Positions 8,884-56,065 of a stretch of 63,277 nucleotides of DNA are shown piece after piece (positions within the stretch are counted from its first letter, which is position 1; every line of letters begins with the position of its first letter). The position numbers and the translations under genes are program-made. Origin of the DNA: Candidatus Daviesbacteria bacterium (GTDB lineage: Bacteria > Patescibacteriota > Microgenomatia > Daviesbacterales > UBA10151); assembly GCA_016176405.1 (NCBI GenBank), contig JACOXG010000011.1:1-63277 (forward strand), in the 5' to 3' direction. Under the pieces are notes generated by a model that was not told the origin of the DNA, searched no databases, and saw nothing but the letters and a program-made list of their open reading frames with translations.

Positions 8884-9801
8884 ATGTTTCCGGTGCTCTT
8901 GGCGATAGATGGATTTTCTCTCTCCTCTTTTGGAGTATTTTTGGCAGCTGGATTTATTTTTGGAGTCTTTTTGGTCTGGAGGCTCTCCCGTGCCTGGGAT
9001 TTAAATGAGGAAAAAGTTTTAGATTTAACTTTATTAACATTTTTAGGCGGACTAGTCACTTCCAGAATTTATTTTGCTTTAGAACATTGGCAATTCTTTT
9101 TTCCCAATATTTTGAATCTAATTTTGGTCCTAAAAAATCCGGGATTTTCCTTTTGGGGAGGATTTCTAGGCGGTTGGCTGAGCTTGTATTTTTTTGCCAG
9201 AAAATTCAGGATAGATTTTTGGCAAGTGGCAGACATTGCCGCAGTCGGGTTTTTGGGAGGCTTAATTTTTGCCCAAATTGGCTGCTTTTTGGGAGGCTGT
9301 GATATTGGCATTGTGCAAAAAGGGTTTTTATCAGTTTCTATGGTAGGAGCTATTGGGAGTAGGTTTCCCATCCAAATATTTGAAGCAGCAGTTTTATTTT
9401 TGATTTTGCGAAAAATTTGGGCCAAAGCCACCCATTTTCATCAAAGAGGTCAAATCATTTCCCTGACCTTAATTTCCATCGGGATAGTGAAACTGTTGGC
9501 CTTACCCTGGAAAGAAAGAGCTCAGCTGGAATTTATATTTCCTCTGATTTTGCTCATTTTAGGCATCATCATCTTCTATAAAATGCAGCCCACAAGAACT
9601 CCTTTATCCGATTTTAAAAATCTGGGCAAATTTGTTTGGGGACTTTTCAGCAATGGGGAAGTCAGAGAAAAGGTAGTTATTAACATTAAAAAAAGTTGGT
9701 ATAATCAAAGGGTTAATTTGGTTTGGAAAGTTAAAAGTTTGATTAAACTATTAAGGAGGCTAAATGTTAGATCTTCCCCAAAAAACACTGCAAACTATTA
9801 G
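8884..9801 (+). CDS. lgt: prolipoprotein diacylglyceryl transferase-like
   Basis: Polytopic membrane protein. The FGVFLAAGFIFGVFLVWR N-terminus and glycine-rich helices are typical of Lgt. Basic C-terminal tail. Confidence 0.72.
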   Translation: MFPVLLAIDGFSLSSFGVFLAAGFIFGVFLVWRLSRAWDLNEEKVLDLTLLTFLGGLVTSRIYFALEHWQFFFPNILNLILVLKNPGFSFWGGFLGGWLSLYFFARKFRIDFWQVADIAAVGFLGGLIFAQIGCFLGGCDIGIVQKGFLSVSMVGAIGSRFPIQIFEAAVLFLILRKIWAKATHFHQRGQIISLTLISIGIVKLLALPWKERAQLEFIFPLILLILGIIIFYKMQPTRTPLSDFKNLGKFVWGLFSNGEVREKVVINIKKSWYNQRVNLVWKVKSLIKLLRRLNVRSSPKNTANY

Positions 9802-10123
9802 AAAATACTTGCTGAGGCAAAAAAGTGAGGTGGAAAAAAACTTAAAAGAGGTGGTGGAGGATGATCCAGCCACTACCCCTGCTTTGGCTGAATCCTCAGA
9901 GCCTGGGACAGATTCTTGGGTGGCAGATGCACATAATAGGGCTTTGGTTTTTAGGGATCAGCTAAAAAAAAGAGGAGACAGCATTAAAAAAGCCTTAGGA
10001 AAAATAAGAAAAGGGACTTATGGTAAATGTGAAAGATGTGGTCAGAGAATTGAGCTATCCAGGCTTTTAGCTATGCCCACAGCTCAATATTGCTTATCTT
10101 GCTCAAAAAAGTTCTCCAAATAA
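9764..10123 (+). CDS. DksA/TraR-family C4 zinc-finger protein
   Basis: CERCGQRIELSRLLAMPTAQYCLSCSKK C4 finger at the C-terminus. Confidence 0.8.
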   Translation: MLDLPQKTLQTIRKYLLRQKSEVEKNLKEVVEDDPATTPALAESSEPGTDSWVADAHNRALVFRDQLKKRGDSIKKALGKIRKGTYGKCERCGQRIELSRLLAMPTAQYCLSCSKKFSK

Positions 10124-10920: not shown

Positions 10921-11178
10921 TCAGTCTATTTGAGAGATTACAATCCTGTAGGTTCTTTCGGGAGTTATCACATCTACTTCCTCACCAACACTTCTATTTA
11001 AGATAGCTTTAGCAACAGGAGCTTTGGGGGAAATATAAATAAGATTTTCCTCATTTTGTCTCTTTTGTTCCTCTTCTGGGACAACACAAACTCTGATAGG
11101 TTTCTCTTTGGGATCCCTATAACGGATTGTGACAATTTTATTATATTCAACCTTCGGTAAAATTGTTTCCATCTCCAC
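10921..11178 (-). CDS. stand-alone GreA/GreB C-terminal-domain-like protein
   Basis: ISPKAPVAKAILNRSVGEEVDVITPERTYRIVISQI resembles the GreA C-terminal (FKBP-like) domain; no coiled-coil N-domain. Confidence 0.6.
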   Translation of the reverse strand: MEMETILPKVEYNKIVTIRYRDPKEKPIRVCVVPEEEQKRQNEENLIYISPKAPVAKAILNRSVGEEVDVITPERTYRIVISQID

Positions 11179-11292: not shown

Positions 11293-12102
11293 ATGTTAAC
11301 TGCGACACTGGGGGGACTTATTAAAGATTATAGAATCAAGAAAAGACTTTCACAACTGGAGGTCTCTTTGCGTATTGGTTGGAAAGACACCTCTAGGCTT
11401 TCAAAAATAGAGCAGGGAAGAGTAGGAAAGCCAACTAGGGAAACAGCTGAAAAAATAATTAAGGCCTTAGATTTAAATATGCAAGAAAAAGGGGAGCTTT
11501 TACTTATGGGAGGATATTTGCCGACAGCCCAAGAAATAAAGAAAATATTGAAAGTTCTTGTTCCGCAAGTGGATAACTGGTCATATCCAGCCTACGTTAT
11601 GGATTTTAGTTGGAGACTGCTTTATAGCAATGACCTTAATTTAAAGGTTTTAACTTTACCCCTATCTGTAAAAGATTTTATAGAAAAAGAATATCCGAAT
11701 GTATTACTTTTTGCCTTCTTGCCTAAAGAACAATTTCCTGCTGAGGTAGAAAAAGGAGAAGATAAAAACCATTTAAAACCTTTTCAGATTGCCCAAATAG
11801 CTGCTTTTAAAACAGAAACTCATCAATTTCAAAATGAGGGTTGGTATAACAAACTTGTCCAAGATTTGATGAAATTTGAAAAATTTAGGGAACTCTGGTC
11901 AAAAATTGATCAAAAGGATTACCATAAAAAGCTTTATGATTATGAATATAAAAAGATTAATAGTGTCTATGAAGGTAAAAAAAGATCATTTGAGTTTCAT
12001 ATTTTTACGGCCAAGATAATTTATGATCCCAGGTTTCAATTAGTCCTTTATTTCCCGGCCAATAAGGAAACAGATAGGTATTGGGAGAAATTTAAAAGGT
12101 AA
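11293..12102 (+). CDS. XRE-family HTH regulator with MmyB-like C-terminal ligand-binding domain
   Basis: LSQLEVSLRIGWKDTSRLSKIEQGRVGKPTRETAEKIIKALDL, followed by a VPQVDNWSYPAYVMDFSWRLLYSN segment resembling MmyB-type regulators. Confidence 0.7.
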   Translation: MLTATLGGLIKDYRIKKRLSQLEVSLRIGWKDTSRLSKIEQGRVGKPTRETAEKIIKALDLNMQEKGELLLMGGYLPTAQEIKKILKVLVPQVDNWSYPAYVMDFSWRLLYSNDLNLKVLTLPLSVKDFIEKEYPNVLLFAFLPKEQFPAEVEKGEDKNHLKPFQIAQIAAFKTETHQFQNEGWYNKLVQDLMKFEKFRELWSKIDQKDYHKKLYDYEYKKINSVYEGKKRSFEFHIFTAKIIYDPRFQLVLYFPANKETDRYWEKFKR

Positions 12103-12146
12103 TAACTTAATCCCACCCCATAGTATTTGATTTTTTGATGATATTT

Positions 12147-12177
12147 GTTATATGATTTGACGATTGCTCATATAACA
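12147..12177. promoter_or_regulatory. inverted repeat GTTATATGA-N13-TCATATAAC, candidate operator
   Basis: Perfect 9-bp arms in the leader between the regulator and the orphan operon. Confidence 0.35.
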
Positions 12178-12247
12178 TGAGTAAAATAAAATAAAATATA
12201 TAATCTAAATATTTCCTTGCAGCACTGCTGCGGAAAAGTTTATTCTT

Positions 12248-13228
12248 ATGGGTTCACCCGAACAAAGGCAAACAAAACTAAATTCACCCCTGCTTTACAC
12301 ACAAGCAGATAGATCTAGACTTCTTGAGTGGCATTTTAATATTGCAGAAAAATTTGGTGTTAAAGAACCCTACTTTAACTTCTCGACAGATTTACCTTCA
12401 GAAAAAAAATCGCTCATTAGGGTAAGAAATTATTTCCCAGGGATTGATCTTATCATCGGCCCTCTAAGAGCATTTTCCAGAGGGGAAGTCGCTGCTGTCA
12501 TTCATGATCAAGTAGTAATCTATGTAATGGATCGGGCATTGGGTAATTTTCCTATTGGAGATACAGAGGCGGAAGAAGAATTAGTAGCGAGTATGATTGG
12601 GGGGTTTAATCAGCACGATGTATTTATTAGCTTTCACGTACGATCACAAGAGAGTTTCAAACCCGTAGCTGGAGGTAGACTAACCTTTGGTAGATCACAA
12701 GAAAGCCTAGTTAAAAATATAACTAGAGAAGACGACTCCCATATTCAAACCTTTAATGCACTTCATGTTAAGGAAGAAACTTTATCAAAATCCCCATTGG
12801 CAAATACTTCTGAGAGTGAGGTAGTTTGTATTTCTCGTTATTTTTGTCAACCTCGTCAAGTACTAAAGGAATTAAGATTAGAAAATATAGGATATAGATT
12901 ACCATTGTACACAGTTGCTCATTTCGTTGGAGGGTATGTTGGATATGCTCAACGAGAGGGTCTGCCGGTCCCTAAGTTTGCAGTTTACGATACTCATTTA
13001 TCATCATTAGCTGAAGTTACTAGGAAAAAGTTCGGAGCCGAGGTTATTGCTTCCGGAGAAGATGTCAGTCCAACAAAGTTGATTCTAGGAACCATTTTAA
13101 GATATCATTACGGTGGCCTTGAATATGGGGGATATAAAAACCATATAATGGTTGTCGCTTTTCCCACAACAGAATATTTAAAAGGTGCAGAAAGGGTATT
13201 AGGATCATCTTTGGCGCTTCCTTTTTAA
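12248..13228 (+). CDS. hypothetical protein, first gene of the orphan operon
   Basis: 326-aa ORF with no confident motif; a weak GNAT/LuxI-like impression around VVCISRYF is unverified. Confidence 0.65.
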   Translation: MGSPEQRQTKLNSPLLYTQADRSRLLEWHFNIAEKFGVKEPYFNFSTDLPSEKKSLIRVRNYFPGIDLIIGPLRAFSRGEVAAVIHDQVVIYVMDRALGNFPIGDTEAEEELVASMIGGFNQHDVFISFHVRSQESFKPVAGGRLTFGRSQESLVKNITREDDSHIQTFNALHVKEETLSKSPLANTSESEVVCISRYFCQPRQVLKELRLENIGYRLPLYTVAHFVGGYVGYAQREGLPVPKFAVYDTHLSSLAEVTRKKFGAEVIASGEDVSPTKLILGTILRYHYGGLEYGGYKNHIMVVAFPTTEYLKGAERVLGSSLALPF

Positions 13229-13231
13229 ACT

Positions 13232-14653
13232 ATGTCTTATTCAGAGCTTTCACCAGAACTTAACAATCAGAGGCTTGCTAGGTTACCTCAACTGAATCAT
13301 TTAAGGCAGCCTCCTTCATCTAGTGATTTAGATCCTAATTCTTACCGACCTGAAATTATTGATCACCATACATCTTCGGGGATTGATAGATTAGCAGGGT
13401 TAATATCACAATGCCCTTTACCTGAACAAAACATTACAATACGTCCATTTTTAAAAGGAGTTGACGAGTTAATTAGTCTTGATGGATTTTTTAAAAGGGC
13501 TTTTGAAGATGTTGATTTTACAGGTTCAGATGCAATTATTCAGGTAAGAGATCAAGTGGCGCAAAGATTGATTCAGGCAAGTCAAGGTGTTATTGAGAAA
13601 AGTCAAATAGATATTTTATTAACAGAGAATACTCTAGTTCCGGATTTAACAACTCTGATACAGCGAGTTTCACAATATAGTGTCCCTGAGGCTTTGGAAG
13701 CAGAATCTAAATGGATATGGGATCCTCTGGATTTAACACTTACAAAGTTTATTGGACCGGATGCAAAAAGGACATTATCTGCATCAAGAGTATTAGGTCT
13801 TATACCTTTTGATGCTATTAACAGAATACAAACAACCAGGTTTAGAGTTTTAGGAGCAAGTGTGGCTGCATCAACTATTGATCTATTAGTGGCGCTAGGT
13901 GCTGAGGATATTGTATTTGTTGATGGAGGATTATTAGATCCTTCGAATGAAGGCAAAATGTTAGGTGATATGGCAGATTTCAGGAGCAATGGTGAATCAA
14001 AAGCGATGATCTTAATGCATCAGATGTATAAACGCAATCCCTATGGTAGTTATTTAGGTTACTCTGGAAAAGTTGTAACTTTAGATGAATCAAAAGGTCC
14101 CTATGATAAAACCATTGATGAATTAGTCAAAGATGCTGACGAAGTGATTGAGGTGGTGGATAGTGCGCATATGAAAATCTATACAAGGTTTTACATGCAA
14201 GGACAATATCCCAGTACACCTATTGGATTTATTGCTGATGTGGGTAGTCAACCCTTTGCAGGAAGAGAAGTTCCTTCGGAGGGAAACTTTTTCCATCAAA
14301 ATTTATCTAATGAGGAAAAACAAAGAATGGAAATGTTATTAGCAGAAACAGATAAAGTTAGAATAGCAACTGAGGGGTTACGATCTGTTTATCAGATGGT
14401 CAGGAGAAATTTTCCACCAGAGCATCAACTGCAATTTTTGCTAAGTAGCCTAGGTATGATACCTTTTTGGTCACAGACACCAATATCTGCCAGAGAATCA
14501 GCCGCAACCTATGCTAAAATTTTCATAAGAGAGGTGAGTGGAGAAAATATTACCTTCGACCAAGCCCCTAGGACTTTGATAAAAGAATTGTCTGAAGAGC
14601 AAATACGAACTATTCAAGCTATTTGTAAAAAAGTTTTTGATATTCAATCTTGA
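13232..14653 (+). CDS. hypothetical protein with degenerate E1/ThiF-like Rossmann core
   Basis: RFRVLGASVAASTIDLLVALGAEDIVFVDGGLLDPSN ... DEVIEVVDSAHMKIY follows the ThiF/MoeB topology but lacks GxGxxG; 3-nt gap to the upstream gene. Confidence 0.65.
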   Translation: MSYSELSPELNNQRLARLPQLNHLRQPPSSSDLDPNSYRPEIIDHHTSSGIDRLAGLISQCPLPEQNITIRPFLKGVDELISLDGFFKRAFEDVDFTGSDAIIQVRDQVAQRLIQASQGVIEKSQIDILLTENTLVPDLTTLIQRVSQYSVPEALEAESKWIWDPLDLTLTKFIGPDAKRTLSASRVLGLIPFDAINRIQTTRFRVLGASVAASTIDLLVALGAEDIVFVDGGLLDPSNEGKMLGDMADFRSNGESKAMILMHQMYKRNPYGSYLGYSGKVVTLDESKGPYDKTIDELVKDADEVIEVVDSAHMKIYTRFYMQGQYPSTPIGFIADVGSQPFAGREVPSEGNFFHQNLSNEEKQRMEMLLAETDKVRIATEGLRSVYQMVRRNFPPEHQLQFLLSSLGMIPFWSQTPISARESAATYAKIFIREVSGENITFDQAPRTLIKELSEEQIRTIQAICKKVFDIQS

Positions 14654-14691
14654 AATTGACTCTTTAAGCGCAACCCTCGTATAGTATATAT

Positions 14692-16926
14692 ATGGTATTT
14701 GGGTTACTGGGATTGCCAGTTGTTAGCTTTACCTTTTTTGCAAATTTATTTATTGCTTATCTCGTATATAGAAAAAACCCTCGATCCATAACCCATATCT
14801 TGATTGCAGCCTTAGCTCTTTGCATGGGACTTTGGGCCGCTTTTAATTATCTTGCTCTTTCACCTGGACCAGAATCAATGCGCTTATTTTGGGTAAGAGT
14901 AGTTATGTTTGTTACCACCCCCTTCGGTCCCTTGATTTTTCTCTTAGCAAAGGTTTTTCCTCAAACAAAATCTGCAATTAACAAGTTGACCATTGGGATA
15001 ACGGCGGTATTTGTTTTAGCTACTGCAGTATTAGCCCTATCTCCTTATATGTTTATTAAATTAGAAAATCAACCTGATGGTAGTTTCAATCTTTCCCCCG
15101 GTTTAGCAATTGTACTTTATGCCATCACTTTACTAGGTTTTATGGCCTATGGATTTATAATCCTAATTAAAAAATATAAAGGTAGCGTAGGGCTTCAAAA
15201 GAAGCAACTTAGTTTATTTTTAACTGGTATTGTTGTGGCTTTTATATTAATGACTGCTACAAATTTTATAGCAGTAGTTGTCTTCAAAACTATTAGCCTA
15301 ACCTTTTTAGGGCCCACCTTCACTCTAATCATGGTGGGTTTTATGGCCTATGCTATTATTAAACACCGTTTTCTAGACATAAAATTAATTATTGCTCGTA
15401 CTATTGGATATACCTTGCTTGTCACATTGATTGCTATTTTCTATGTGACGACAACTTTCATATTAAGCACTCTGTTTTTTGATTTTCTTAGCAGAAGAGC
15501 CCAGTTAATTGCTTATATGGCCTTAACTATATTAATCGCTTTATCTTTTAATAGCTTAAGGTCAGTAATTGAAAAGGTTACTGATAAAATCTTCTTTAAA
15601 GGAAATTATGATTCTTCTAAGCTGCTGTCATCTTTTGGTTCAATCATGAGCACCATGATTGAGTTAAGGCCATTATCTACGGCTATTTTACAAACACTTA
15701 CCTCTGAGATGAGAATTAGTAGGGGAGCTATTGTTCTTTTGGAAAAAGAGGCAATATATGACATTATCAGGGTTGGTTTTTCCAAGCAATATCCTTACTC
15801 ATATTCAACAGTAGCTTCTTTTTTAGCAGGGGTAAATACTGTTATTTTTGATGAATTAGAAGAGGGGAATTTAAAACAGTTAATGCGTGATTTAAATATA
15901 GCTATTGCTCACCTTCTTGTGGTTAAAGGTGAAATAGTGGGATTGTTATTACTGGGTGAAAAAGCCTCAGGAGAAGTTTATTCAGAGGGGGATTTAAGAG
16001 TATTGGATATTTTTTCACCAGAACTGGCAATTGCCATTCAAAATGCTAAATCCTATGATAAAATCCAAAAATTTAATATTACTTTACAAGAAGAAGTACA
16101 GAAAGCTACCAGTGATCTTAAGGTTGCTAATCAAAAACTAAAAGAGCTGGATCAGCTTAAAGATGAGTTTGTCTCCATTACCTCCCATGAACTAAGGACT
16201 CCCATGACTGTCATCCGCTCCTATGCCTGGATGGCTTTAAATAAAGCTGATATAGACCTTTCTGACAAAATGAAAAAATCATTGGTGAGAATTTTAATTT
16301 CCGCAGAAAGATTGATTAATTTAGTCAATGATCTTTTGAATGTGTCTAGAATTGAGGCTCAAAGAATAGAGATTTCCCCCCGTCCACTGGATTTAATCAG
16401 CTTGGTCAAAGATATTATAGATGAGATCTATTATTCCAAATCAACCGAGAAAAACATTCAATTTAATATTTTGGAGCAAAAGTTACCAGAAGTTTTTGCT
16501 GATCCTGATAAATTAAGACAAGTTTTACTAAATTTGGTGGGTAATTCTGTCAAATTTACTCCTCCGGGAGGCAAAATTATCTTTAGTTTTTTTACTGATG
16601 GAAAAGTGGTTGAGACATCTGTTAAAGATACCGGTGTTGGTATTTCCCAAGAAGATTTGGGCAGGCTGTTTACCAAGTTTGGCAGATTAGATACTTCTTA
16701 TGTATCTATTTCCACATCCGGTGGTACAGGTTTAGGTCTTTATATCTCCAAAAAACTGATCGAGCTAATGCATGGGAAAATTTGGGCCTCTTCAGAGGGA
16801 GTAGGGAAGGGGACCACCTTTACTTTTTCTCTACCTGTTGCCTCTTCTGAAATTTTACAGCATGCTGATCAGTTTAAGATTAAGCCTAAAGGAGAGATTA
16901 AAGGATTGGAACCGGTGGCAATATAA
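14692..16926 (+). CDS. sensor histidine kinase (polytopic N-terminus, GAF-like, HisKA, HATPase_c)
   Basis: H-box SHELRTPMT, N box LVGNSVKFT, G boxes DTGVGIS and GGTGLGLYISK. Confidence 0.9.
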   Translation: MVFGLLGLPVVSFTFFANLFIAYLVYRKNPRSITHILIAALALCMGLWAAFNYLALSPGPESMRLFWVRVVMFVTTPFGPLIFLLAKVFPQTKSAINKLTIGITAVFVLATAVLALSPYMFIKLENQPDGSFNLSPGLAIVLYAITLLGFMAYGFIILIKKYKGSVGLQKKQLSLFLTGIVVAFILMTATNFIAVVVFKTISLTFLGPTFTLIMVGFMAYAIIKHRFLDIKLIIARTIGYTLLVTLIAIFYVTTTFILSTLFFDFLSRRAQLIAYMALTILIALSFNSLRSVIEKVTDKIFFKGNYDSSKLLSSFGSIMSTMIELRPLSTAILQTLTSEMRISRGAIVLLEKEAIYDIIRVGFSKQYPYSYSTVASFLAGVNTVIFDELEEGNLKQLMRDLNIAIAHLLVVKGEIVGLLLLGEKASGEVYSEGDLRVLDIFSPELAIAIQNAKSYDKIQKFNITLQEEVQKATSDLKVANQKLKELDQLKDEFVSITSHELRTPMTVIRSYAWMALNKADIDLSDKMKKSLVRILISAERLINLVNDLLNVSRIEAQRIEISPRPLDLISLVKDIIDEIYYSKSTEKNIQFNILEQKLPEVFADPDKLRQVLLNLVGNSVKFTPPGGKIIFSFFTDGKVVETSVKDTGVGISQEDLGRLFTKFGRLDTSYVSISTSGGTGLGLYISKKLIELMHGKIWASSEGVGKGTTFTFSLPVASSEILQHADQFKIKPKGEIKGLEPVAI

Positions 16927-16974: not shown

Positions 16975-17355
16975 ATGGATGGTACTAAAAAAAGAATTCT
17001 GATAGTTGAGGATGATCAATTCTTAAGGGAATTTTACCAAGAATTGTTGGAGGGAGAAGGCTTTCAGGTGGAGGTGGCTTCCGATGGGGAAGTTGGTTTG
17101 GAAAAAATGCATCAAGGAGGATTTGATGTGGTTCTTTTGGATATCATGCTACCCAAAAAAGACGGTTTACAGATCTTAAGAGATCTAAAAGCTTCTCCAC
17201 CCCAAAATAATAATAAAGCCATTGTGACTTTGACCAATTTAGGTCAAGATACCATCATCAAACAATGTTTTGAACTGGGAGCCTCAGGCTATTTAATCAA
17301 ATCAGCCTTAAATCCAGAGCAGGTATTAGAAGAAATTAAAACCTACCTAAAGTAA
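16975..17355 (+). CDS. single-domain response regulator (CheY-like receiver)
   Basis: ILIVEDD..VLLDIMLPKKDG..LTNL receiver motifs; no output domain. Confidence 0.9.
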   Translation: MDGTKKRILIVEDDQFLREFYQELLEGEGFQVEVASDGEVGLEKMHQGGFDVVLLDIMLPKKDGLQILRDLKASPPQNNNKAIVTLTNLGQDTIIKQCFELGASGYLIKSALNPEQVLEEIKTYLK

Positions 17356-17358
17356 TTG

Positions 17359-18144
17359 ATGTCCCCTAAAGTTGTTTTTGAAGATGATCATGTTTTAGTG
17401 TTAGGAAAGCCTGCCGGGATGGTGGTGACCCCTGCTGAGACCCAAAAAGAGGAAACGCTGATTGATTGGTTGAGAGAAAACTATGATTCTTCCGAGTACC
17501 ATAGTAAGGAGGCTCAAGACAGAATGGGAGTGGTCCATAGATTGGATAAAGAGACCTCTGGGTTATTGATAATCGGAAAAACAGATCAGGCTTTTGCCAA
17601 TCTCCAAAAGCAATTTAAGGAAAGAAAAGTTAAAAAAGAGTACATTGCCTTGGTTCATGGTCATGTTATGGAAGCTGGTAGAGTGGAAGGGGGTATTGGT
17701 AGAAATCCTAGAAACAGGGAGAAGTTTGCAGTACTTTTAGAAGGAAAAGAAGCAGTTACTGAGTATGAACCACTGAAGAGGTTACAGTTTACAGGGGACA
17801 GGTTACAGGAAATATTTTCTGATTTTAATAAGATACAAATGAGAAAACTGTCCACTATCCATTATAACCTGTTCACTCTATTATCTTGCCATCCGCTTAC
17901 TGGACGGACACACCAGATTAGGGTACATTTAAAATATGTGGGGCATCCAATTGTGGCAGATGAAAAGTATGTGGGTAGGAAAATGTACAGGTTAGATAAA
18001 AGATGGTGTCCCAGAATGTTTCTACATGCAGAAAAGCTGGGATTTTATCATCCAGATGGTGGGAAATGGATGGAGGTGGAAAGTAAGTTACCGGAGGATC
18101 TGAGAGAAGTACTGAATAAGCTGACTAGCGAATTGGCTAACTAG
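17359..18144 (+). CDS. RluA-family pseudouridine synthase
   Basis: HRLDKETSGLLIIGK catalytic Asp motif and HQIRVHL motif. Confidence 0.88.
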   Translation: MSPKVVFEDDHVLVLGKPAGMVVTPAETQKEETLIDWLRENYDSSEYHSKEAQDRMGVVHRLDKETSGLLIIGKTDQAFANLQKQFKERKVKKEYIALVHGHVMEAGRVEGGIGRNPRNREKFAVLLEGKEAVTEYEPLKRLQFTGDRLQEIFSDFNKIQMRKLSTIHYNLFTLLSCHPLTGRTHQIRVHLKYVGHPIVADEKYVGRKMYRLDKRWCPRMFLHAEKLGFYHPDGGKWMEVESKLPEDLREVLNKLTSELAN

Positions 18145-49841: not shown

Positions 49842-49911
49842 ATGACCCCTTGACGAAAGAGTAGAGGTTATGAATACAATAAAATATAGAGTGAAGGGGG
49901 GTGAGTAGTTT

Positions 49912-50481
49912 TTGAGAAAATCTGCCCAGGTTCTAACTAGAGGGTTTACCCTAGTGGAACTTTTGGTTGTTATTGCTATTATTGCCATTTTGGCGGCAGT
50001 GGTGGTACTGATTGTTAATCCCTTAGAGGTAACTAGAAGGGCTCGTGATGCCACCAGATTTGCTGATGTGACTAATGTTCAACAAGCCATCAATGTGACT
50101 GTTCAAGAAGCAACTGGATCAGGAGCTGAAGTGCTTTGTGCTGGAGGATCTGCTCCCTGTGTAGGTAGAAGTACAGATAGTGGTTCCCAATCATCAGCTG
50201 GTACTGGATGGGTTAAAGTTGATTTGACTGTGCAAAATGCAGTGGCTGTACCAAACTTGCCAAATGATCCGCAAAATACATCCGGTGCAACCGGCATGCA
50301 CTATACTTATTGTTCTGACGGTAATGCTTGGGAAATCAATACCAGGCTAGAGTCAACCCGATATACAGTGGATGAAGATCGTGATGGTGGAGATGGTGGG
50401 GATGATCCTGATATATACGAGACTGGTTCTGACCCAGGTTTGAATTTGATCTCACCATCAGGTGGTTCATGTACTTATTAA
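49912..50481 (+). CDS. type IV pilin (class III signal peptide)
   Basis: RGFTLVELLVVIAIIAILAA prepilin cleavage/methylation motif; TTG start 6 nt after GGGGGGTGAG. Confidence 0.85.
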   Translation: MRKSAQVLTRGFTLVELLVVIAIIAILAAVVVLIVNPLEVTRRARDATRFADVTNVQQAINVTVQEATGSGAEVLCAGGSAPCVGRSTDSGSQSSAGTGWVKVDLTVQNAVAVPNLPNDPQNTSGATGMHYTYCSDGNAWEINTRLESTRYTVDEDRDGGDGGDDPDIYETGSDPGLNLISPSGGSCTY

Positions 50482-51380
50482 GTTTAGTTGCTTCTGGCTT
50501 TATTTTAGGGACGATTTTAGGTAGTTTAACCAAAGCCCTAGCTGACAGAAGTTTAACTAATGGTAAGTTTTTGGGAAGGTCGTACTGCCCGCATTGCAAA
50601 AAAGTCTTGCGATGGTACGACCTTCTTCCTATTGTCTCCTACCTACTTCTAAAAGGAAAATGTCATTATTGCCACAAAAATATTGGCAAAGAATATTTAA
50701 TGGTGGAGTTAGTGATGGGGCTTTTGATAGCCTATTTATTCTATCAGAACTTCTCATACTTTAACTTTCCCCTTTCTCCTTTACCCTTTACCCTTTTTTT
50801 CTTAGATCTTATTTATAAAATCTTCTTTATCACGGTTTTAGCCATTCTATTTATAACAGATCTTAAGAAGATGTTAATTCCGGATCGGATAGTTATTCCA
50901 GCAATCATCATCAGCTCTATCTATCTAATTATGACCACCATTCTAAAAATTGGCTTCCTATATTATTCCCTCTCCCAAACTCAAATAGGCAGATACTTAC
51001 TTCCTCCTCACAGTGAATTTTTTCAAAGGCATGCCTTAATTGCGGCTGAGGGAGCAATAGGAGCATTTTTAGTGGCGCTTACAATTGGAGGACTCTTTTT
51101 ATTTTTGGCAAAAATTACTGGAGGTCGAGGTATGGGAGGTGGAGATGTCAAGTTAGGATTTTTAATGGGATTAGGCTTAGGTTTCCCCAATGCTTTGGTG
51201 GCCTTAATGGGAGGATTTTTATCAGGGGCAGTGGTAGCCATCATCTTAATTATTTTAGGTAAAAAACATTTTGGCCAGTCTATCCCCTTTGGACCATTTT
51301 TGGTGTTAGGTAGTTTAGTGGCTCTTTTTTGGGGTAATCAAATAATGGGGTGGTATCTGAGATTATCATTCTCAGGCTAA
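50469..51380 (+). CDS. pilD: prepilin peptidase/N-methyltransferase PilD (A24 family)
   Basis: CPHCKKVL..CHYCHK zinc motif and GGGDVKL catalytic Asp motif. Confidence 0.92.
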   Translation: MYLLSLVASGFILGTILGSLTKALADRSLTNGKFLGRSYCPHCKKVLRWYDLLPIVSYLLLKGKCHYCHKNIGKEYLMVELVMGLLIAYLFYQNFSYFNFPLSPLPFTLFFLDLIYKIFFITVLAILFITDLKKMLIPDRIVIPAIIISSIYLIMTTILKIGFLYYSLSQTQIGRYLLPPHSEFFQRHALIAAEGAIGAFLVALTIGGLFLFLAKITGGRGMGGGDVKLGFLMGLGLGFPNALVALMGGFLSGAVVAIILIILGKKHFGQSIPFGPFLVLGSLVALFWGNQIMGWYLRLSFSG

Positions 51381-51436
51381 ATTGGGGTCTTGACAAGATG
51401 TTAATTCATATGCAAATAATGGAATAGAACTAAAAA

Positions 51437-51877
51437 ATGAAAAAGTATCTGCCCAAAACTTCTGGTTTCACCTTAGTTGAACTTTTGGTAGTTGTGGCCA
51501 TTATTGCCATTTTAGCAATAATTGGTATTGCTATTTTCTCCGGTCTTCAACCAAGGGCTAGAGATGCCACCAGAAAATCAGATCTAGAAGCTATTTCTAA
51601 GGCTATGGAAACTCAGTATGTAGAAAGTACTGCTCAATATGCTGCCTTGGCTGCGACCTTCTTTGCAGGTGGAACAATTCCCACAGATCCACTAAACGGA
51701 ACAACTACCTGTCAATCAAATACTTGTAAATACTGTGTGAGAACAAGCAATGGCAATTGTACAACTACAGACACTACTGTAGCAGCTGGGCAACCTCCTG
51801 CAGGTACCAGCTATAGAGTTTGTACTAATTTAGAACAAGGTACACCCACTTTTCTTTGTTACGCCAGTCAACGCTAA
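51437..51877 (+). CDS. type IV pilin
   Basis: SGFTLVELLVVVAIIAILA motif; Cys-containing C-terminal region. Confidence 0.88.
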   Translation: MKKYLPKTSGFTLVELLVVVAIIAILAIIGIAIFSGLQPRARDATRKSDLEAISKAMETQYVESTAQYAALAATFFAGGTIPTDPLNGTTTCQSNTCKYCVRTSNGNCTTTDTTVAAGQPPAGTSYRVCTNLEQGTPTFLCYASQR

Positions 51878-51885
51878 CTTACTAC

Positions 51886-51915
51886 TTGCATTTTAAAAAA
51901 ATTTATTGGAATAAT
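51886..51915 (+). promoter_or_regulatory. candidate promoter TTGCAT-18-AATAAT
   Basis: -10-like box ends 8 nt before ATG 51924; no Shine-Dalgarno. Confidence 0.35.
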
Positions 51916-51923
51916 AAATTAAC

Positions 51924-52841
51924 ATGCCCAACAAAAAAGGTTTTACCCTGGTTGAACTGCTGGTAGTTATAGCTATCCTGGCCATCCTGGCTATTATTGG
52001 CATAGTGATTTTCACCGGGCTGACCAAAAATGCTAATGAAAGTAGAAAAAAATCCGATGTGGAAACCATAGCCAAAGTTTTGGAAGCACAGTATAGTCCA
52101 ATAGCTGGTTACCCTAATCCTCTGGCAGGCACTTTCTTTGCTTCAGGAATAGTACCAACACCTCCTGAGGGAGGTACCTACAATGTTGTATATAGTACTG
52201 GTAATGTTGGTTTTAGAGTTTGTGCAGATTCTGCTGATACTGATCCCCTTACAACCTGTAGTGCGTCTTCTAGTACTTGTTTCTGTAAAGATTCCAGCCA
52301 ATCACAATACGTAGCCGCTGGTGGTCCCCCACCAGGAGGTGGTGGAAATCCCAAACGGGTCTTTGTGACCAGTACCACATCTAATGGTAATTTAGGTGGA
52401 TTAGCTGGAGCTGATACTACCTGTAACACACGCGCCAGTTCAGAAGGATTAGGAGGTACTTGGGTGGCTTGGCTGTCCACTACTACAGTTGCTGCCAGTT
52501 CAAGGGTGAATCAAACAGGTGCTCCTTATGAGTTAGTCAATGGTACAGATATTGCCGATGATTGGACAGATTTAACCACTCTTCATGATGGAACTAATTA
52601 CCTAAAAGCTGCAATTAATATTAATGAAAGTGGAACAACAGTAACAGCTAATGTCTGGACCAATACAACTGTAACTGGAGGTATACCCGCCACATCAGCT
52701 GATTGTAGTGGTTGGACCTCGCCAGATTCTGCTGTTACTGGAAAAGGTGGCACTACCACAAGTACCACTGCTACCTGGACTGCTGCTGGTAGTACTCCAA
52801 CCTGTAATAATTCTTATCGTTTATATTGTTTTGAGCAATAA
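51924..52841 (+). CDS. type IV pilin fused to a C-terminal endostatin/DUF1554-like domain
   Basis: KGFTLVELLVVIAILAILA, then a Gly/Pro linker, then KRVFVTSTTSNGNLGGLAGADTTCNTRA..GGTWVAWLS..YRLYCFEQ. Confidence 0.85.
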   Translation: MPNKKGFTLVELLVVIAILAILAIIGIVIFTGLTKNANESRKKSDVETIAKVLEAQYSPIAGYPNPLAGTFFASGIVPTPPEGGTYNVVYSTGNVGFRVCADSADTDPLTTCSASSSTCFCKDSSQSQYVAAGGPPPGGGGNPKRVFVTSTTSNGNLGGLAGADTTCNTRASSEGLGGTWVAWLSTTTVAASSRVNQTGAPYELVNGTDIADDWTDLTTLHDGTNYLKAAININESGTTVTANVWTNTTVTGGIPATSADCSGWTSPDSAVTGKGGTTTSTTATWTAAGSTPTCNNSYRLYCFEQ

Positions 52842-52931
52842 TTTAAATTTACCTAGTACCACTACGCCCTTTATCAAATTTATCAAACAGGTATGCCCCT
52901 CGCTACTAGTCGCACTACTAATTACGTGTTA

Positions 52932-53727
52932 CCAACCCCCGGTGTCAACACCCGGGGTTTAATAGCTTGAAACCTAAGGATATTTTGTGGTAATGTAGCC
53001 TTATGCCATACCGTAAGACTCCCCTATCCCAAGGAGAGATTTATCACATCTTCAATCGCAGTGTTGCCAGACAACCCATCTTTTTAGGAAATAGAGATTA
53101 TCAAAGAGCTTTGGAGACGATCAGATTTTATCTCTTTTCCGGAGCTCATTTAAGTTTCTCCCATTATGACAGGTTACCTCTGCAACAACGCTCTGATTTT
53201 ATGAAAAAACTGGAAGAGTCAAATGAAAGGCAGATAGAAATCTTTGCTTACTGTCTCATGCCAAATCACCTCCATTTCTTAATGAAGTGCCTAAGGGATA
53301 AAGGTATTAGCAATTTCATGAATTGGTTGCAAAATAGCTACGCCAAATACTTCAATATTAAAACGGAGAGAAGTGGGGCTTTATTCCAATCAATGTTTAA
53401 GGCAGTCAGAATTGAATCAGATGAACAATTCATCCATGTGGGGCGTTATATCCATCTTAATCCCTTAACTGCCTATATTATAAAAAACTCAGCCCAACTA
53501 GAGAACTATCCATGGTCTTCCTTTGCAGAGTATCTGGATAATCAGGATCCCAAAATTATCAGCAGAGAGCTCATGTTAGGTCACTTCTCTTCCGTAGAAG
53601 CCTTTAAAAGATTCACTTTTGATCAAATAGATTATCAAAGAAAATTAGCCGAAATTAAACACTTACTAAATGAGTAAACTTTGGATTTTCCTTAGGTTTC
53701 TATTCAACCAACCCCCGGTGTTGGTTT
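52932..53727 (+). mobile_element. RAYT (REP-associated Y1 transposase) unit with flanking inverted REPs
   Basis: Left REP 52932-52980 and inverted right REP 53684-53727 bracket the IS200-like gene. Confidence 0.75.
53003..53677 (+). CDS. IS200-like/REP-associated tyrosine transposase (RAYT)
   Basis: HIFNRSVARQPIF, HUH motif in CLMPNHLHFLM, catalytic Tyr region GRYIHLNPL. Confidence 0.88.
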   Translation: MPYRKTPLSQGEIYHIFNRSVARQPIFLGNRDYQRALETIRFYLFSGAHLSFSHYDRLPLQQRSDFMKKLEESNERQIEIFAYCLMPNHLHFLMKCLRDKGISNFMNWLQNSYAKYFNIKTERSGALFQSMFKAVRIESDEQFIHVGRYIHLNPLTAYIIKNSAQLENYPWSSFAEYLDNQDPKIISRELMLGHFSSVEAFKRFTFDQIDYQRKLAEIKHLLNE

Positions 53728-53732
53728 TCTCG

Positions 53733-53761
53733 TTGACGAGGCATTAATGGTAGTGAATAAT
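53733..53761 (+). promoter_or_regulatory. candidate promoter TTGACG-17-AATAAT
   Basis: -10-like box ends 7 nt before ATG 53769. Confidence 0.4.
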
Positions 53762-53768
53762 AAAGATA

Positions 53769-54284
53769 ATGCCTAGAAGTAAGCCAAAAGTTTCTGGTTT
53801 TACCCTTATAGAGCTTCTGGTAGTAATCACCATTATAGCTGTTTTGGCTGCTATTGGACTTTTAAGCTATTCCAAATTTATTGAAACTTCTAGAAATGCC
53901 AAAAGACAATCTGACCTAAAATTAATTCAATCAGCCCTAGAACAATATCATGCTGACCAAAAATTCTATCCAAATGAGGGATTAAATTTAGGGAGTGGTA
54001 CAACTCTAACAAACTGTACTGGTAACGCTACAGGTTGTTCTGTTAGTAAAACCTATTTAAATTCCATACCCAAAGATCCTAAAGCCAGTCCTGCTTATTG
54101 CTATAGATCAATGATTAGTTCTTCTCGGACAGGTGATAATTGTAGTAGTGGTTGGTATGATGATTCAGGTCATGAAAAATGTCAGTATTACCGCATATGT
54201 GCAACTTTAGAAAATCCCAGCTCTTCTACATCCTGTGATTGTGGGGGTGGTAAAACTGGTAACTTTGAAGTAAATCCCCCATAA
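53769..54284 (+). CDS. type IV pilin
   Basis: SGFTLIELLVVITIIAVLAA motif; Cys-rich C-terminus. Confidence 0.88.
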   Translation: MPRSKPKVSGFTLIELLVVITIIAVLAAIGLLSYSKFIETSRNAKRQSDLKLIQSALEQYHADQKFYPNEGLNLGSGTTLTNCTGNATGCSVSKTYLNSIPKDPKASPAYCYRSMISSSRTGDNCSSGWYDDSGHEKCQYYRICATLENPSSSTSCDCGGGKTGNFEVNPP

Positions 54285-54322
54285 AGCTTTAGATTTTCCC
54301 CAATTTATGTTACTTTTAAATC

Positions 54323-54865
54323 ATGCCCACTTCATCTACCAACTCCTCAGGTTTCACATTGCTTGAGCTTTTAATTGTTTTGGTAATTTTAGCAATTTTA
54401 GCAGTAACTGCCGGAATCAATTTTAGGACCCTTTCGGAGGATCAAGTTTTAAAAAAAGCCACCTCTGATATTCAATCCTTTTTAAGGCTGGCCCAATCTA
54501 ATTCCACTGCAGGAGTTAAATGTCCTGGTACATCTACAGCGGGTAGCTGGTCAGTGGTATTCAATGGCAGTGATAAAAAAAAATTAGAGATGAATTGCAG
54601 TTATGTTTCTGGAGATAGTGGTATTTTGATTGCTAATGCAAAACCACCCCTGGTATTAGAAAATGCAGAGGTTTCATCAATTACTGGTAGCAGTTGTACT
54701 GCTGGCCCACCCTTTACAGTTTACTATGCCACTCTTTATGGCACTGTGACATTTAATTCTGATACTAATTGTTCAAAGGCGACTGTTACAGTCAAAAGAG
54801 TCAATTCTACCAGCACCAAAGACTTTTATATTACCAAAGGAGGATCCATAGATGCAGCGCCGTGA
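54323..54865 (+). CDS. minor pilin / pseudopilin
   Basis: SGFTLLELLIVLVILAILA motif. Confidence 0.85.
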   Translation: MPTSSTNSSGFTLLELLIVLVILAILAVTAGINFRTLSEDQVLKKATSDIQSFLRLAQSNSTAGVKCPGTSTAGSWSVVFNGSDKKKLEMNCSYVSGDSGILIANAKPPLVLENAEVSSITGSSCTAGPPFTVYYATLYGTVTFNSDTNCSKATVTVKRVNSTSTKDFYITKGGSIDAAP

Positions 54866-55400
54866 AGGTGGGCAGACATTGTTGGAATTGACCATAGTAG
54901 TGGGAATTACCGTGATTGTGGTGACAGCTTTAGTCTTTGCCACTATTTTCAGCCTCAGAAACGCTCAATTGGCTAAAAATCAAACTCAAGCTACTAAACT
55001 GGCCCAGGAAGGACTGGAAAGAGTCAGAAGCGGCAGGAGTAGAAACCTACCCATTACCGGTATCGGAAGTGTGACCAGTTGGAATGGTGATACGAGTGGG
55101 GCTGGAGCTATCTGGAGCTACACTATTAATGGAAATTGTGGGAATACCACTCTCCCTACCCCCACCTATTGCTACTTTACTCTCTCTTCTAAAACCTCTG
55201 ATAATTCACTAAACTACCTGGCTGTTTCTGATAAGTTTCCAGTCAGCAGCAGTGTTGAGAAAATTGATCAATTCGAGAGAGCCATTATTATTAGTGATGG
55301 CTCCTCTGCTTCCGAAAAAAAAGTCACATCTGTTGTTAAATGGACTGATGCGGCAGGTCCGCATGAGGCCAAAGTGACTACCATATTAGGGAAACTATGA
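54852..55400 (+). CDS. minor pilin-like protein (atypical +1 Gln)
   Basis: GGQTLLELTIVVGITVIVV with Glu at +5. Confidence 0.7.
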   Translation: MQRREGGQTLLELTIVVGITVIVVTALVFATIFSLRNAQLAKNQTQATKLAQEGLERVRSGRSRNLPITGIGSVTSWNGDTSGAGAIWSYTINGNCGNTTLPTPTYCYFTLSSKTSDNSLNYLAVSDKFPVSSSVEKIDQFERAIIISDGSSASEKKVTSVVKWTDAAGPHEAKVTTILGKL

Positions 55401-56065
55401 TAAGAAAAGTTCAAAGTTCGAAGTTCAAAGTTCGAAGTTCAAAGGGTTTTACCTTGGTTGAAATGCTGGTAGTGATAGCAGTATTGGGGGTGATTGGGTC
55501 ATTAATTTTAGCCATTTTCACCTCAACTTTGCGGGGCAGTAATAAATCTCAAATAATTTCTATTATTAAGCAAAACGGCCAATCTGTTTTAGAAACGATG
55601 GATAAAACTATCCGAAATTCTGAGGGTGTGGTCTGTGTATCTAGCGCAAATGATGTGATTGCTGTTGTCCAGGATAATATCTATACCAGATATAAATTTG
55701 TCACATCCTCCTCCTCAGCTAAAAGTGATTGCGTCACAGAAAATGGTTGCATACTGCAAGACAATCCGGTGAGGCCATCTTCCGGTTCAGAAGCTGATAT
55801 AGACCTATTCCTCGATAGTCTTTGTGTAAATCCTCTAGATTCACCCAAAATATTAACAGATACCAACAAGAAAACAGGTGTTTCTGTTAGAAAAACCAAG
55901 GATGCTTCAGGTAGTGAGCTGCCCTACATTAGCCGCAGTGAAAGATCAGGTTTTAAGGATGTGGTGACTATTCGCTTTAGCTTGGAGGAAGGTAAAGAGG
56001 CTCCTCCCGAGGTGGCTGGGCAGATTGATCCCATACCTTTTCAAACAAGCATAGAGTTAAGATGA
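55397..56065 (+). CDS. minor pilin / pseudopilin with long repeat-encoded leader
   Basis: KGFTLVEMLVVIAVLGV motif. The leader MIRKVQSSKFKVRSSK is encoded by the (AGTTCRA)x5 array. Confidence 0.8.
   Translation: MIRKVQSSKFKVRSSKGFTLVEMLVVIAVLGVIGSLILAIFTSTLRGSNKSQIISIIKQNGQSVLETMDKTIRNSEGVVCVSSANDVIAVVQDNIYTRYKFVTSSSSAKSDCVTENGCILQDNPVRPSSGSEADIDLFLDSLCVNPLDSPKILTDTNKKTGVSVRKTKDASGSELPYISRSERSGFKDVVTIRFSLEEGKEAPPEVAGQIDPIPFQTSIELR

Follow-up and report, generated by a model that had tools for sequence, protein, structure and literature searches.

We describe a hitherto undescribed four-gene signalling cassette of Patescibacteria, found on a contig of a Candidatus Daviesbacteria bacterium (assembly GCA_016176405.1, contig JACOXG010000011.1, positions 1 to 63,277; the whole of this 63,277 nt stretch is referred to below as the window). 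All four genes lie on the forward strand, and they encode a protein of an unannotated family with a probable GNAT-like acyltransferase fold (hereafter A; 12248-13228, 326 aa), a divergent E1/ThiF-type adenylating protein (hereafter B; 13232-14653, 473 aa), a histidine kinase with a seven-transmembrane (7TM) sensor of the HisKA_7TM type (14692-16926), and a CheY-like response regulator that consists of a receiver domain only (16975-17355, 126 aa). A and B form one functional unit, which is linked to one specific 7TM kinase and to a receiver of the CheY type, and what is new here is the occurrence of an E1-type adenylating enzyme together with a new partner family within a two-component cassette. 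Full-text searches of the literature returned no description of either the A-B pair or the cassette.

A conserved unit of A, B, kinase and receiver

The extent of the unit was established by scoring the neighbourhoods of relatives with profiles of A, B, the kinase, the receiver, and a regulator gene that lies directly upstream of A in the window (hereafter R). A word-indexed search supplied approximately 14 relatives of B and only 2-3 proteins for A, while one locus came from a scan of metagenome contigs with a 3-sequence alignment of A. A and B are adjacent or fused in 11 independent related loci, and their order is always A then B. A lies directly upstream of B in the window, in L001/L008 (Patescibacteria UBA1449), in L003/4/9 (Woesebacteria), and in L007, L014, L016 and L017, with gaps between the two genes that range from +31 to -26 nt; in the window the stop codon of A (TAA) is followed by three nucleotides (ACT) and then by the ATG of B. 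In three further loci (L018, L022 and L023) A and B are fused into a single protein of 725-820 aa, and both profiles, again in A-to-B order, are found in 12 of the 91 representatives of the A family (approximately 13% fusions). The first-pass annotation of the window, which was made from the letters of the DNA alone, had proposed that the two genes belong together, and their co-occurrence in other genomes bears this out.

The association extends beyond the pair. In all 11 loci that reach far enough, the gene that comes immediately after A-B, or after the fusion, is an ortholog of the kinase (E-values of 1e-86 to 1e-192 for the orthologs in L001, L003, L007, L011 from Gottesmanbacteria, L014, L016, L017, L018, L022 and L023), and a receiver-only regulator of 120-160 aa adjoins the cassette in every related locus. 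Homologs of R, by contrast, were found by profile scoring in 0 of 19 related loci. Because kinase and receiver always accompany A-B and R does not, we consider it very likely that the conserved unit is a four-gene cassette of A, B, kinase and receiver in which A and B are functionally coupled, rather than an MmyB-type regulator with an orphan two-gene operon, as had been suggested initially. The distribution of the cassette is narrow, and all of the named loci belong to Patescibacteria. The first-pass annotation did not link the kinase at 14692-16926 and the receiver at 16975-17355 to A-B.

A can function, or at any rate be maintained, in the absence of B, and B in that of A, as is evident from the occurrence of solo B genes (L005/6/10, L012, L013 and L015) and of A without B (L019), and signalling proteins are a common theme among these arrangements. 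The solo B homologs of L005/6/10 (6001-7461 in L005), L012 (7713-8978) and L013 (7872-9104) lack the kinase as well as A, and share a gene order in which phosphoribosyl pyrophosphate synthetase and an S4-pseudouridine synthase (divergent) are followed by B and then by SecA (convergent). In L015 (5028-8476), a locus of 62% guanine-plus-cytosine (GC) content, the genes before B encode a ketoacyl synthase and a protein of 657 aa (AAA-lid/HTH_8), and those after it REC-STAS and hybrid kinases; B overlaps the end of the 657-aa protein, in which an AAA-lid and a Fis-type HTH_8 are recognisable and the N-terminal 520 aa are unassigned. We considered whether this protein conceals an A domain, and rejected the idea as it gives no match to the A profile. 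In L019 a 676-aa protein in which a cyclic nucleotide (cNMP)-binding domain is fused to A (P0064; 4411-6441) is followed by a tetratricopeptide-repeat protein and a Ser/Thr kinase, and B is absent; a 395-aa protein after the fusion was tried as a hidden B domain and is not B. One of the solo B loci, L010 (CAZMXT010000013.1), is labelled 'uncultured Pseudomonadales' and has a GC content of 44%, and its B homolog is near-identical in score to those of the JGI loci L005 and L006. The bin label of L010 may be wrong.

Protein B, an atypical member of the E1 superfamily

An E1/ThiF-type Rossmann core had been recognised in B at the outset, and both profile and structural comparisons agree with this assignment. 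In Pfam, the ThiF match of B is weak and below the cut-off (1.6e-3; 18.1 bits versus a gathering threshold of 28.1 for PF00899), and some fused relatives pass PF00899 (e.g. P0057 with 57.6 bits). Searched against PDB sequences, the B profile matches 8IDE, a TcdA domain from the TsaN protein of a pandoravirus (1.7e-7, 33.7 bits), ATG7 (1.6e-5) and ThiF (4.5e-4), and TCD1 appears as well. The AlphaFold2 model of B is confident, with a predicted local distance difference test score (pLDDT) of 87 and a predicted template-modelling score (pTM) of 0.87, and in Foldseek it retrieves the E1 enzymes of SUMO, NEDD8 and ubiquitin, together with MccB, AclA, Cap2 and ThiF (E 5.9e-7, probability 1.0); BubCD is also among the matches. 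The best target-normalised TM-score, 0.73, belongs to AclA (9EGB), for the function of which a literature search found no paper. The predicted E1 fold of B is thus firm.

B comprises a helical N-terminal domain (residues approximately 35-185), the E1 Rossmann core (approximately 186-350) and a C-terminal region with the motif IPFWSQTPISARESA, which is strongly conserved. Neither the N-terminal domain of roughly 150 aa nor the IPFWSQTPISARESA motif could be matched to anything known, and both set B apart from the E1/ThiF/MoeB/TcdA proteins of the PF00899 superfamily. With those proteins B shares the Rossmann-type fold, the arginine finger, the D-R/K-K motif and the Mg-binding aspartate; it differs from them in lacking CxxC zinc motifs and a catalytic cysteine (the family alignment contains no CxxC motif and no conserved Cys), and in the glycine loop, where G-A-S-V-A-A, with a deletion of one residue, takes the place of the canonical GxGGxG (GLGGLG in E. 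coli ThiF and MoeB). All 15 family members share this replacement, as do the fused relatives that were aligned.

The initial description of B as degenerate holds only for this loop, and the side chains that would bind ATP and Mg are kept. R186 (at the position of the N-terminal arginine finger), D231, K257 and D310 (the Mg-binding Asp) are invariant; at position 241 the window has K and most relatives have R, and S237-N238 are present in most members. R186, D231, K241, K257 and D310 align with R14, D62, R73, K86 and D130 of MoeB (our numbering on the E. coli sequence), and the D-R/K-K motif aligns with D803-R814-K827 of the TsaN TcdA domain, in which the R814A and K827A mutants are inactive (PMC10484737). 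Given this conservation pattern, we think it somewhat probable that B is a catalytically competent, if atypical, adenylating enzyme, and adenylation would be its only chemistry since the catalytic Cys and the zinc motifs are missing.

The partners that define the known systems of this superfamily were sought and were not found, and B is not a member of the ThiF/MoeB, MccB/PaaA, TOMM (thiazole/oxazole-modified microcin) or Cap2/Bil/Bub systems. No gene for a ThiS-, MoaD- or Ubl (ubiquitin-like)-type beta-grasp partner lies in or beside any cassette, and YcaO, E2, JAB, Ubl, CD-NTase and a precursor peptide are all absent, as the first-pass annotation had noted for the window.

Protein A, a new family with a probable GNAT-like fold

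Neither A nor B had been placed in a characterised family at first reading, and our searches agree for both. The A protein of the window is recognised by none of Pfam, NCBIfam and PADLOC. When 60 members were scanned with Pfam and NCBIfam, no GNAT family was matched either, with the sole exception of an E 0.061 match to an S5-alanine acetyltransferase model. Profiles of 4 and of 60 sequences found nothing relevant among PDB sequences, the LuxI family (PF00765) gives no match, and no Q/RxxGxG/A motif for binding coenzyme A (CoA) is evident. An exhaustive hidden Markov model search of 1.84 billion representatives places the family at 91 clusters at 50% identity. A is a founding-type member of this rare, unannotated family.

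Structural comparison suggests an affiliation that the sequence does not reveal. The top 50 Foldseek matches to the low-confidence model of A are all of GNAT fold, the best of them being Rv0998 (4AVB; 2.7e-3) and MesI (6WNS; 3e-3, probability 1.00, TMt 0.45), with further matches to NAT9, PA3270, RimL, Rv1347c, PatZ, MccE and Kre33. The predicted order of elements (beta1-alpha1-alpha2-beta2-4-alpha3-beta5-alpha4-beta6-7) fits that of GNAT proteins. Among the invariant or near-invariant residues of the family (R197, near-invariant; D248, invariant; H287; Y288), R197 and D248 fall at the ends of predicted beta4 and beta5, which is where we take GNAT active sites to lie. We therefore regard a GNAT-like fold for A as probable. 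The vague GNAT/LuxI impression that A had given at first reading thus gains weak structural support from Foldseek, and no link by sequence profile.

In comparison with characterised GNAT proteins, such as the LuxI-type AHL synthase MesI and Rv0998, A shares the predicted order of the fold, and an N-terminal cNMP-binding domain like that of Rv0998 occurs in one relative. A differs in its length of approximately 330 aa with long insertions, in the absence of sequence similarity and of a CoA motif, and in being partnered by, or fused to, an E1-like protein, which may stand in for the use of acyl-CoA or acyl carrier protein (acyl-ACP). A GNAT-type domain joined to an NTP-binding domain is also found in PatZ/Pat and in TmcA/Kre33-NAT10; the partner in the A-B fusions is E1-like, however, not acyl-CoA-synthetase- or helicase-like, and homology would hold only at the level of the fold.

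Kinase, receiver and the conservation of segments

The window kinase is assigned by HisKA_7TM (1.2e-12), HisKA (8.1e-16) and HATPase_c (4.6e-28) in Pfam. Its sensor is an N-terminal 7TM block without an extracytoplasmic domain, which is often followed by a GAF domain in the family (clear in L023 and weakly GAF-like in the window). The receiver (Response_reg 2.6e-24, residues 8-121) contains the stretches IVEDD and LLDIMLP, which we interpret as its acidic pocket and the region of the phosphoacceptor, and all regulators of the cassettes are receiver-only, without an output domain. PAS or Cache kinases flank several cassettes. A signalling role, one of those proposed initially for A and B, fits this context.

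Conservation differs considerably between the segments of the cassette. Expressed as median pairwise identity across nine loci, it is 48% for the 7TM sensor of the kinase (14692-15400 in the window), 40% for the kinase core, 38% for the receiver, 35% for the E1 part of B, 32% for A and 29% for the N-terminal part of B. A sensor domain as the best-conserved segment is unusual.

Pilus and competence genes near cassettes

Genes for type IV pili or competence lie in or beside the cassette in 5 of 11 loci, as a raw count. In L001 pilB/pilC-type genes are found downstream of the cassette, in L003 pilM and pilins upstream of it, in L016 and L018 the cassette lies between pilB-pilC and pilins, and in L023 comEA and comEC are upstream. 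The link between the cassette and pili or competence is suggestive only. The window has its own pilin cluster, of six prepilin-like open reading frames (ORFs) with a class III signal motif G-F-T-L-[VIL]-E (49909-56062), which is 35 kb from the cassette; the genes that follow the receiver there encode a pseudouridine synthase, a Na/H exchanger and a LytR_C protein, and we rejected the idea of adjacent pili in the window itself.

The leader and the local neighbourhood in the window

The layout reported at first, with three ORFs, an AT-rich leader of 145 bp with palindromes and a 3-nt gap between A and B, is exactly that which we find. The leader, or promoter region, of the cassette (12103-12247, forward strand) has a GC content of 26.9%, versus 38.8% across the window. 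It contains a perfect inverted repeat of 10 nt, TGTTATATGA-N12-TCATATAACA, at 12146-12177, which overlaps a -10-like TATGAT and is a candidate operator, and a palindrome GCAGC-ACT-GCTGC at 12220-12232, shortly before the start codon of A. The leader RNA folds with z = -2.85 versus shuffled sequences; a riboswitch was considered and dropped, as an Rfam scan gave no matching family. A promoter-like site, TTGACT-18-TATAGT (14656-14685, forward strand; 10/12 consensus matches), sits in the 38 nt that separate B from the kinase gene and ends 6 nt before the ATG of the latter. Promoter-like sites in the region are no more numerous than in shuffled sequences, and this one is a consensus match only; with it (14656-14691, up to the kinase gene) the kinase could have separate transcription, as a nearly leaderless mRNA.

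R (11293-12102, forward strand, 269 aa) is an MmyB-like XRE regulator and, as a neighbour of the cassette, specific to the window. Its N-terminal helix-turn-helix (HTH), noted at first reading, is clearly of XRE type (HTH_3, 6.9e-10), and its match to MLTR_LBD is borderline (E 1e-5; 26.1 bits, the cut-off being 26.3; positions 10-122 of the 168 in the profile). Further upstream, a library scan identifies a MazE/AbrB-type antitoxin and PIN toxin pair (vapBC-like), and a gene for a stand-alone GreA/GreB C-terminal domain protein (GreA-C; 10921-11178, reverse strand, 85 aa), both of which had been named correctly from the sequence. The patch that holds R, vapBC and GreA-C has a slightly lower GC content, and vapBC and the GreA-C gene, like R, recur in 0 of the 19 related loci. 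R and the vapBC/GreA-C patch are consequently local neighbours and not a conserved part of the system. The patch looks like a local insertion beside the cassette, and R may regulate the cassette locally. Within 1.5 kb, and flanking the vapBC-like pair, the GreA-C protein is accompanied by a DksA/TraR zinc-finger protein (9764-10123, forward strand, 119 aa); by family, both would be secondary-channel RNA polymerase factors. On the other side of the cassette, a gene for an RluA-type pseudouridine synthase (17356-18144) abuts the receiver gene.

Possible functions of the cassette

The mechanism that we favour, tentatively and at somewhat less than even probability when taken as a whole, is as follows. 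B would adenylate a carboxylate using ATP, and A, as a GNAT-like transferase, would move the activated acyl group onto an amine to give an amide-linked product. This product would most likely be a small and probably amphipathic signal that is read by the adjoining 7TM kinase, which would then phosphorylate the CheY-like receiver; the output in several genomes would probably be type IV pili or DNA uptake, and in the window further control may be exerted locally by the MmyB-like regulator and the palindrome of the leader. We favour A-B as a signal synthase, which we hold to be possible rather than probable, over A-B as a regulated output owing to the layout with the synthase upstream of the sensor, the membrane-embedded sensor, and the likeness of A to acyl-amide synthases. 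In LuxM/LuxN, CqsA/CqsS, agrBDCA and comQXPA the synthase genes are immediately followed by one for a polytopic sensor kinase, and the cassette resembles these autoinducer systems in having enzyme genes upstream of a multi-pass sensor kinase without a periplasmic domain, followed by a regulator. It differs from them in its enzyme families, in the absence of a precursor peptide, in a regulator without a DNA-binding domain, and in a sensor that is the most conserved rather than the most variable part, and its signal is at present a prediction. The most specific version of this proposal, a circuit particular to Patescibacteria in which an acyl-amide signal made by A-B without acyl-CoA or acyl-ACP acts through the 7TM kinase on a CheY-like receiver that steers pili or DNA uptake, seems unlikely to be correct in every part.

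Several observations weigh against the favoured mechanism as a whole. A has no detectable sequence similarity to the GNAT, LuxI or Fem families, its AlphaFold2 model is poor (pLDDT 60 and pTM 0.62, from a 3-sequence alignment), and its Foldseek E-values are weak, at 2.7e-3 or worse. ATP binding by B is not assured given the replaced GxGxxG loop, and the enzymatic activity, product and ligand of A-B are predicted only. No segment of the cassette is better conserved than the 7TM sensor, unlike the situation in strain-specific quorum-sensing cassettes, and a regulator without a DNA-binding domain offers no obvious transcriptional feedback. Moreover, B occurs alone, without A and far from any kinase gene, in L005/6/10, L012 and L013, and the cNMP_binding-A fusion without B in L019 resembles a regulated output enzyme.

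This last point leads to an alternative that we judge rather unlikely, if the strongest of the rivals, under which A-B is an output enzyme: the phosphorylated receiver (or cNMP in fused relatives) would bind A-B and activate the ATP-dependent acylation or ligation of a protein target, the candidates being a component of the pilus or competence machinery, or else the kinase and receiver of the cassette. The cAMP-regulated acetyltransferase Rv0998/Pat and the Acs-dependent acetylation of CheY offer analogies for such an arrangement. Receiver-only regulators of 120-160 aa need a protein target, and the P0064 cNMP_binding-A protein shares its layout with Rv0998, the top Foldseek match of A. Extra PAS/Cache kinases suggest that many inputs converge on the receiver, the sensor is unusually well conserved, and the cassette lies within pilus/competence clusters in L001, L003, L016, L018 and L023. 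However, the protein target is hypothetical, the C-termini of A, the receiver and the pilins show no conserved tail that would suggest an E1 substrate, receiver-only proteins could equally be intermediates of a phosphorelay, and the cassette of the window is 35 kb from its own pilin cluster. The proposal that R, as an XRE/MmyB-type regulator, controls a self-contained small-molecule operon of two genes, to which the downstream kinase is unrelated, is improbable. R is directly upstream of A on the same strand, and the 10-nt inverted repeat over the -10-like hexamer is a plausible operator, yet homologs of R are found in none of the 19 loci while kinase and receiver always follow A-B, MLTR_LBD is just under the Pfam cut-off, and R sits with vapBC and GreA-C in a patch of lower GC content.

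Marginally less probable again is a role in RNA or nucleoside modification, in which B would act as a TcdA-like, ATP-dependent dehydratase or ligase on a modified nucleoside, with A as an accessory transferase and the two-component link secondary. The best PDB match of the B profile is indeed a TcdA domain (8IDE) and TCD1 also appears, solo B adjoins S4-pseudouridine synthase genes in L005, L012 and L013, and the RluA-type pseudouridine synthase gene of the window abuts that of the receiver. Nevertheless, the match to 8IDE amounts to only 33.7 bits and is nearly equalled by ATG7 and ThiF, TcdA proteins keep the canonical glycine loop on our reading of the alignment, the synteny of solo B may merely reflect a conserved order of housekeeping genes, and the invariant linkage of A-B to the kinase would be left unexplained. 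We hold it to be very improbable that the cassette makes a peptide natural product of the MccB/PaaA type (a ribosomally synthesised and post-translationally modified peptide), or that B is a docking scaffold of the TOMM type, even though the structure of B finds some of its best matches in MccB and AclA, and its extra N-terminal domain could serve as a peptide clamp. Like MccB, PaaA and AclA, B is a stand-alone, adenylating E1-like protein with an extra N-terminal domain and without E2; the cassettes, however, contain no precursor peptide (a search of the 700 nt before A in 9 loci found no small ORF that is conserved), and no YcaO, exporter, immunity or tailoring genes. YcaO is encoded in 0 loci, and B retains its catalytic residues at the ATP site, unlike the E1-like docking proteins of TOMM systems. 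Finally, an anti-phage module similar to Cap2/CBASS, Bil or Bub, the second role that had been suggested for A and B at first, is the least probable of all. Cap2 and BubCD are among the Foldseek matches of B and a vapBC pair is nearby, but neither A nor B has a match in PADLOC, E2, JAB, Ubl and CD-NTase are absent, B has no conserved Cys, and the neighbours in all related loci are signalling, pilus and housekeeping genes rather than those of a defence island.

Implications for Patescibacteria and the E1 superfamily

Patescibacteria are abundant, mostly uncultured and host-dependent bacteria, and to our knowledge the means by which they sense their partners, and by which they control pili and DNA uptake, are largely unknown. 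The cassette brings together a dedicated membrane kinase and an enzyme pair, the latter composed of a new family and an atypical E1-like clade, and can be tested on four genes, for which the natural A-B fusions provide single-polypeptide versions suited to biochemistry. If B is active, the E1 adenylation site works without the canonical GxGxxG loop, and a GNAT-like partner would join the known partners of E1 proteins (Ubl, E2, YcaO, peptides and tRNA). Should A-B prove inert or purely structural, the pair would still constitute a new accessory module of two-component signalling. If, on the other hand, the proposed signal circuit is true, it would represent the first defined chemistry of cell-cell or symbiont-host signalling in these ultrasmall bacteria of the candidate phyla radiation (CPR).

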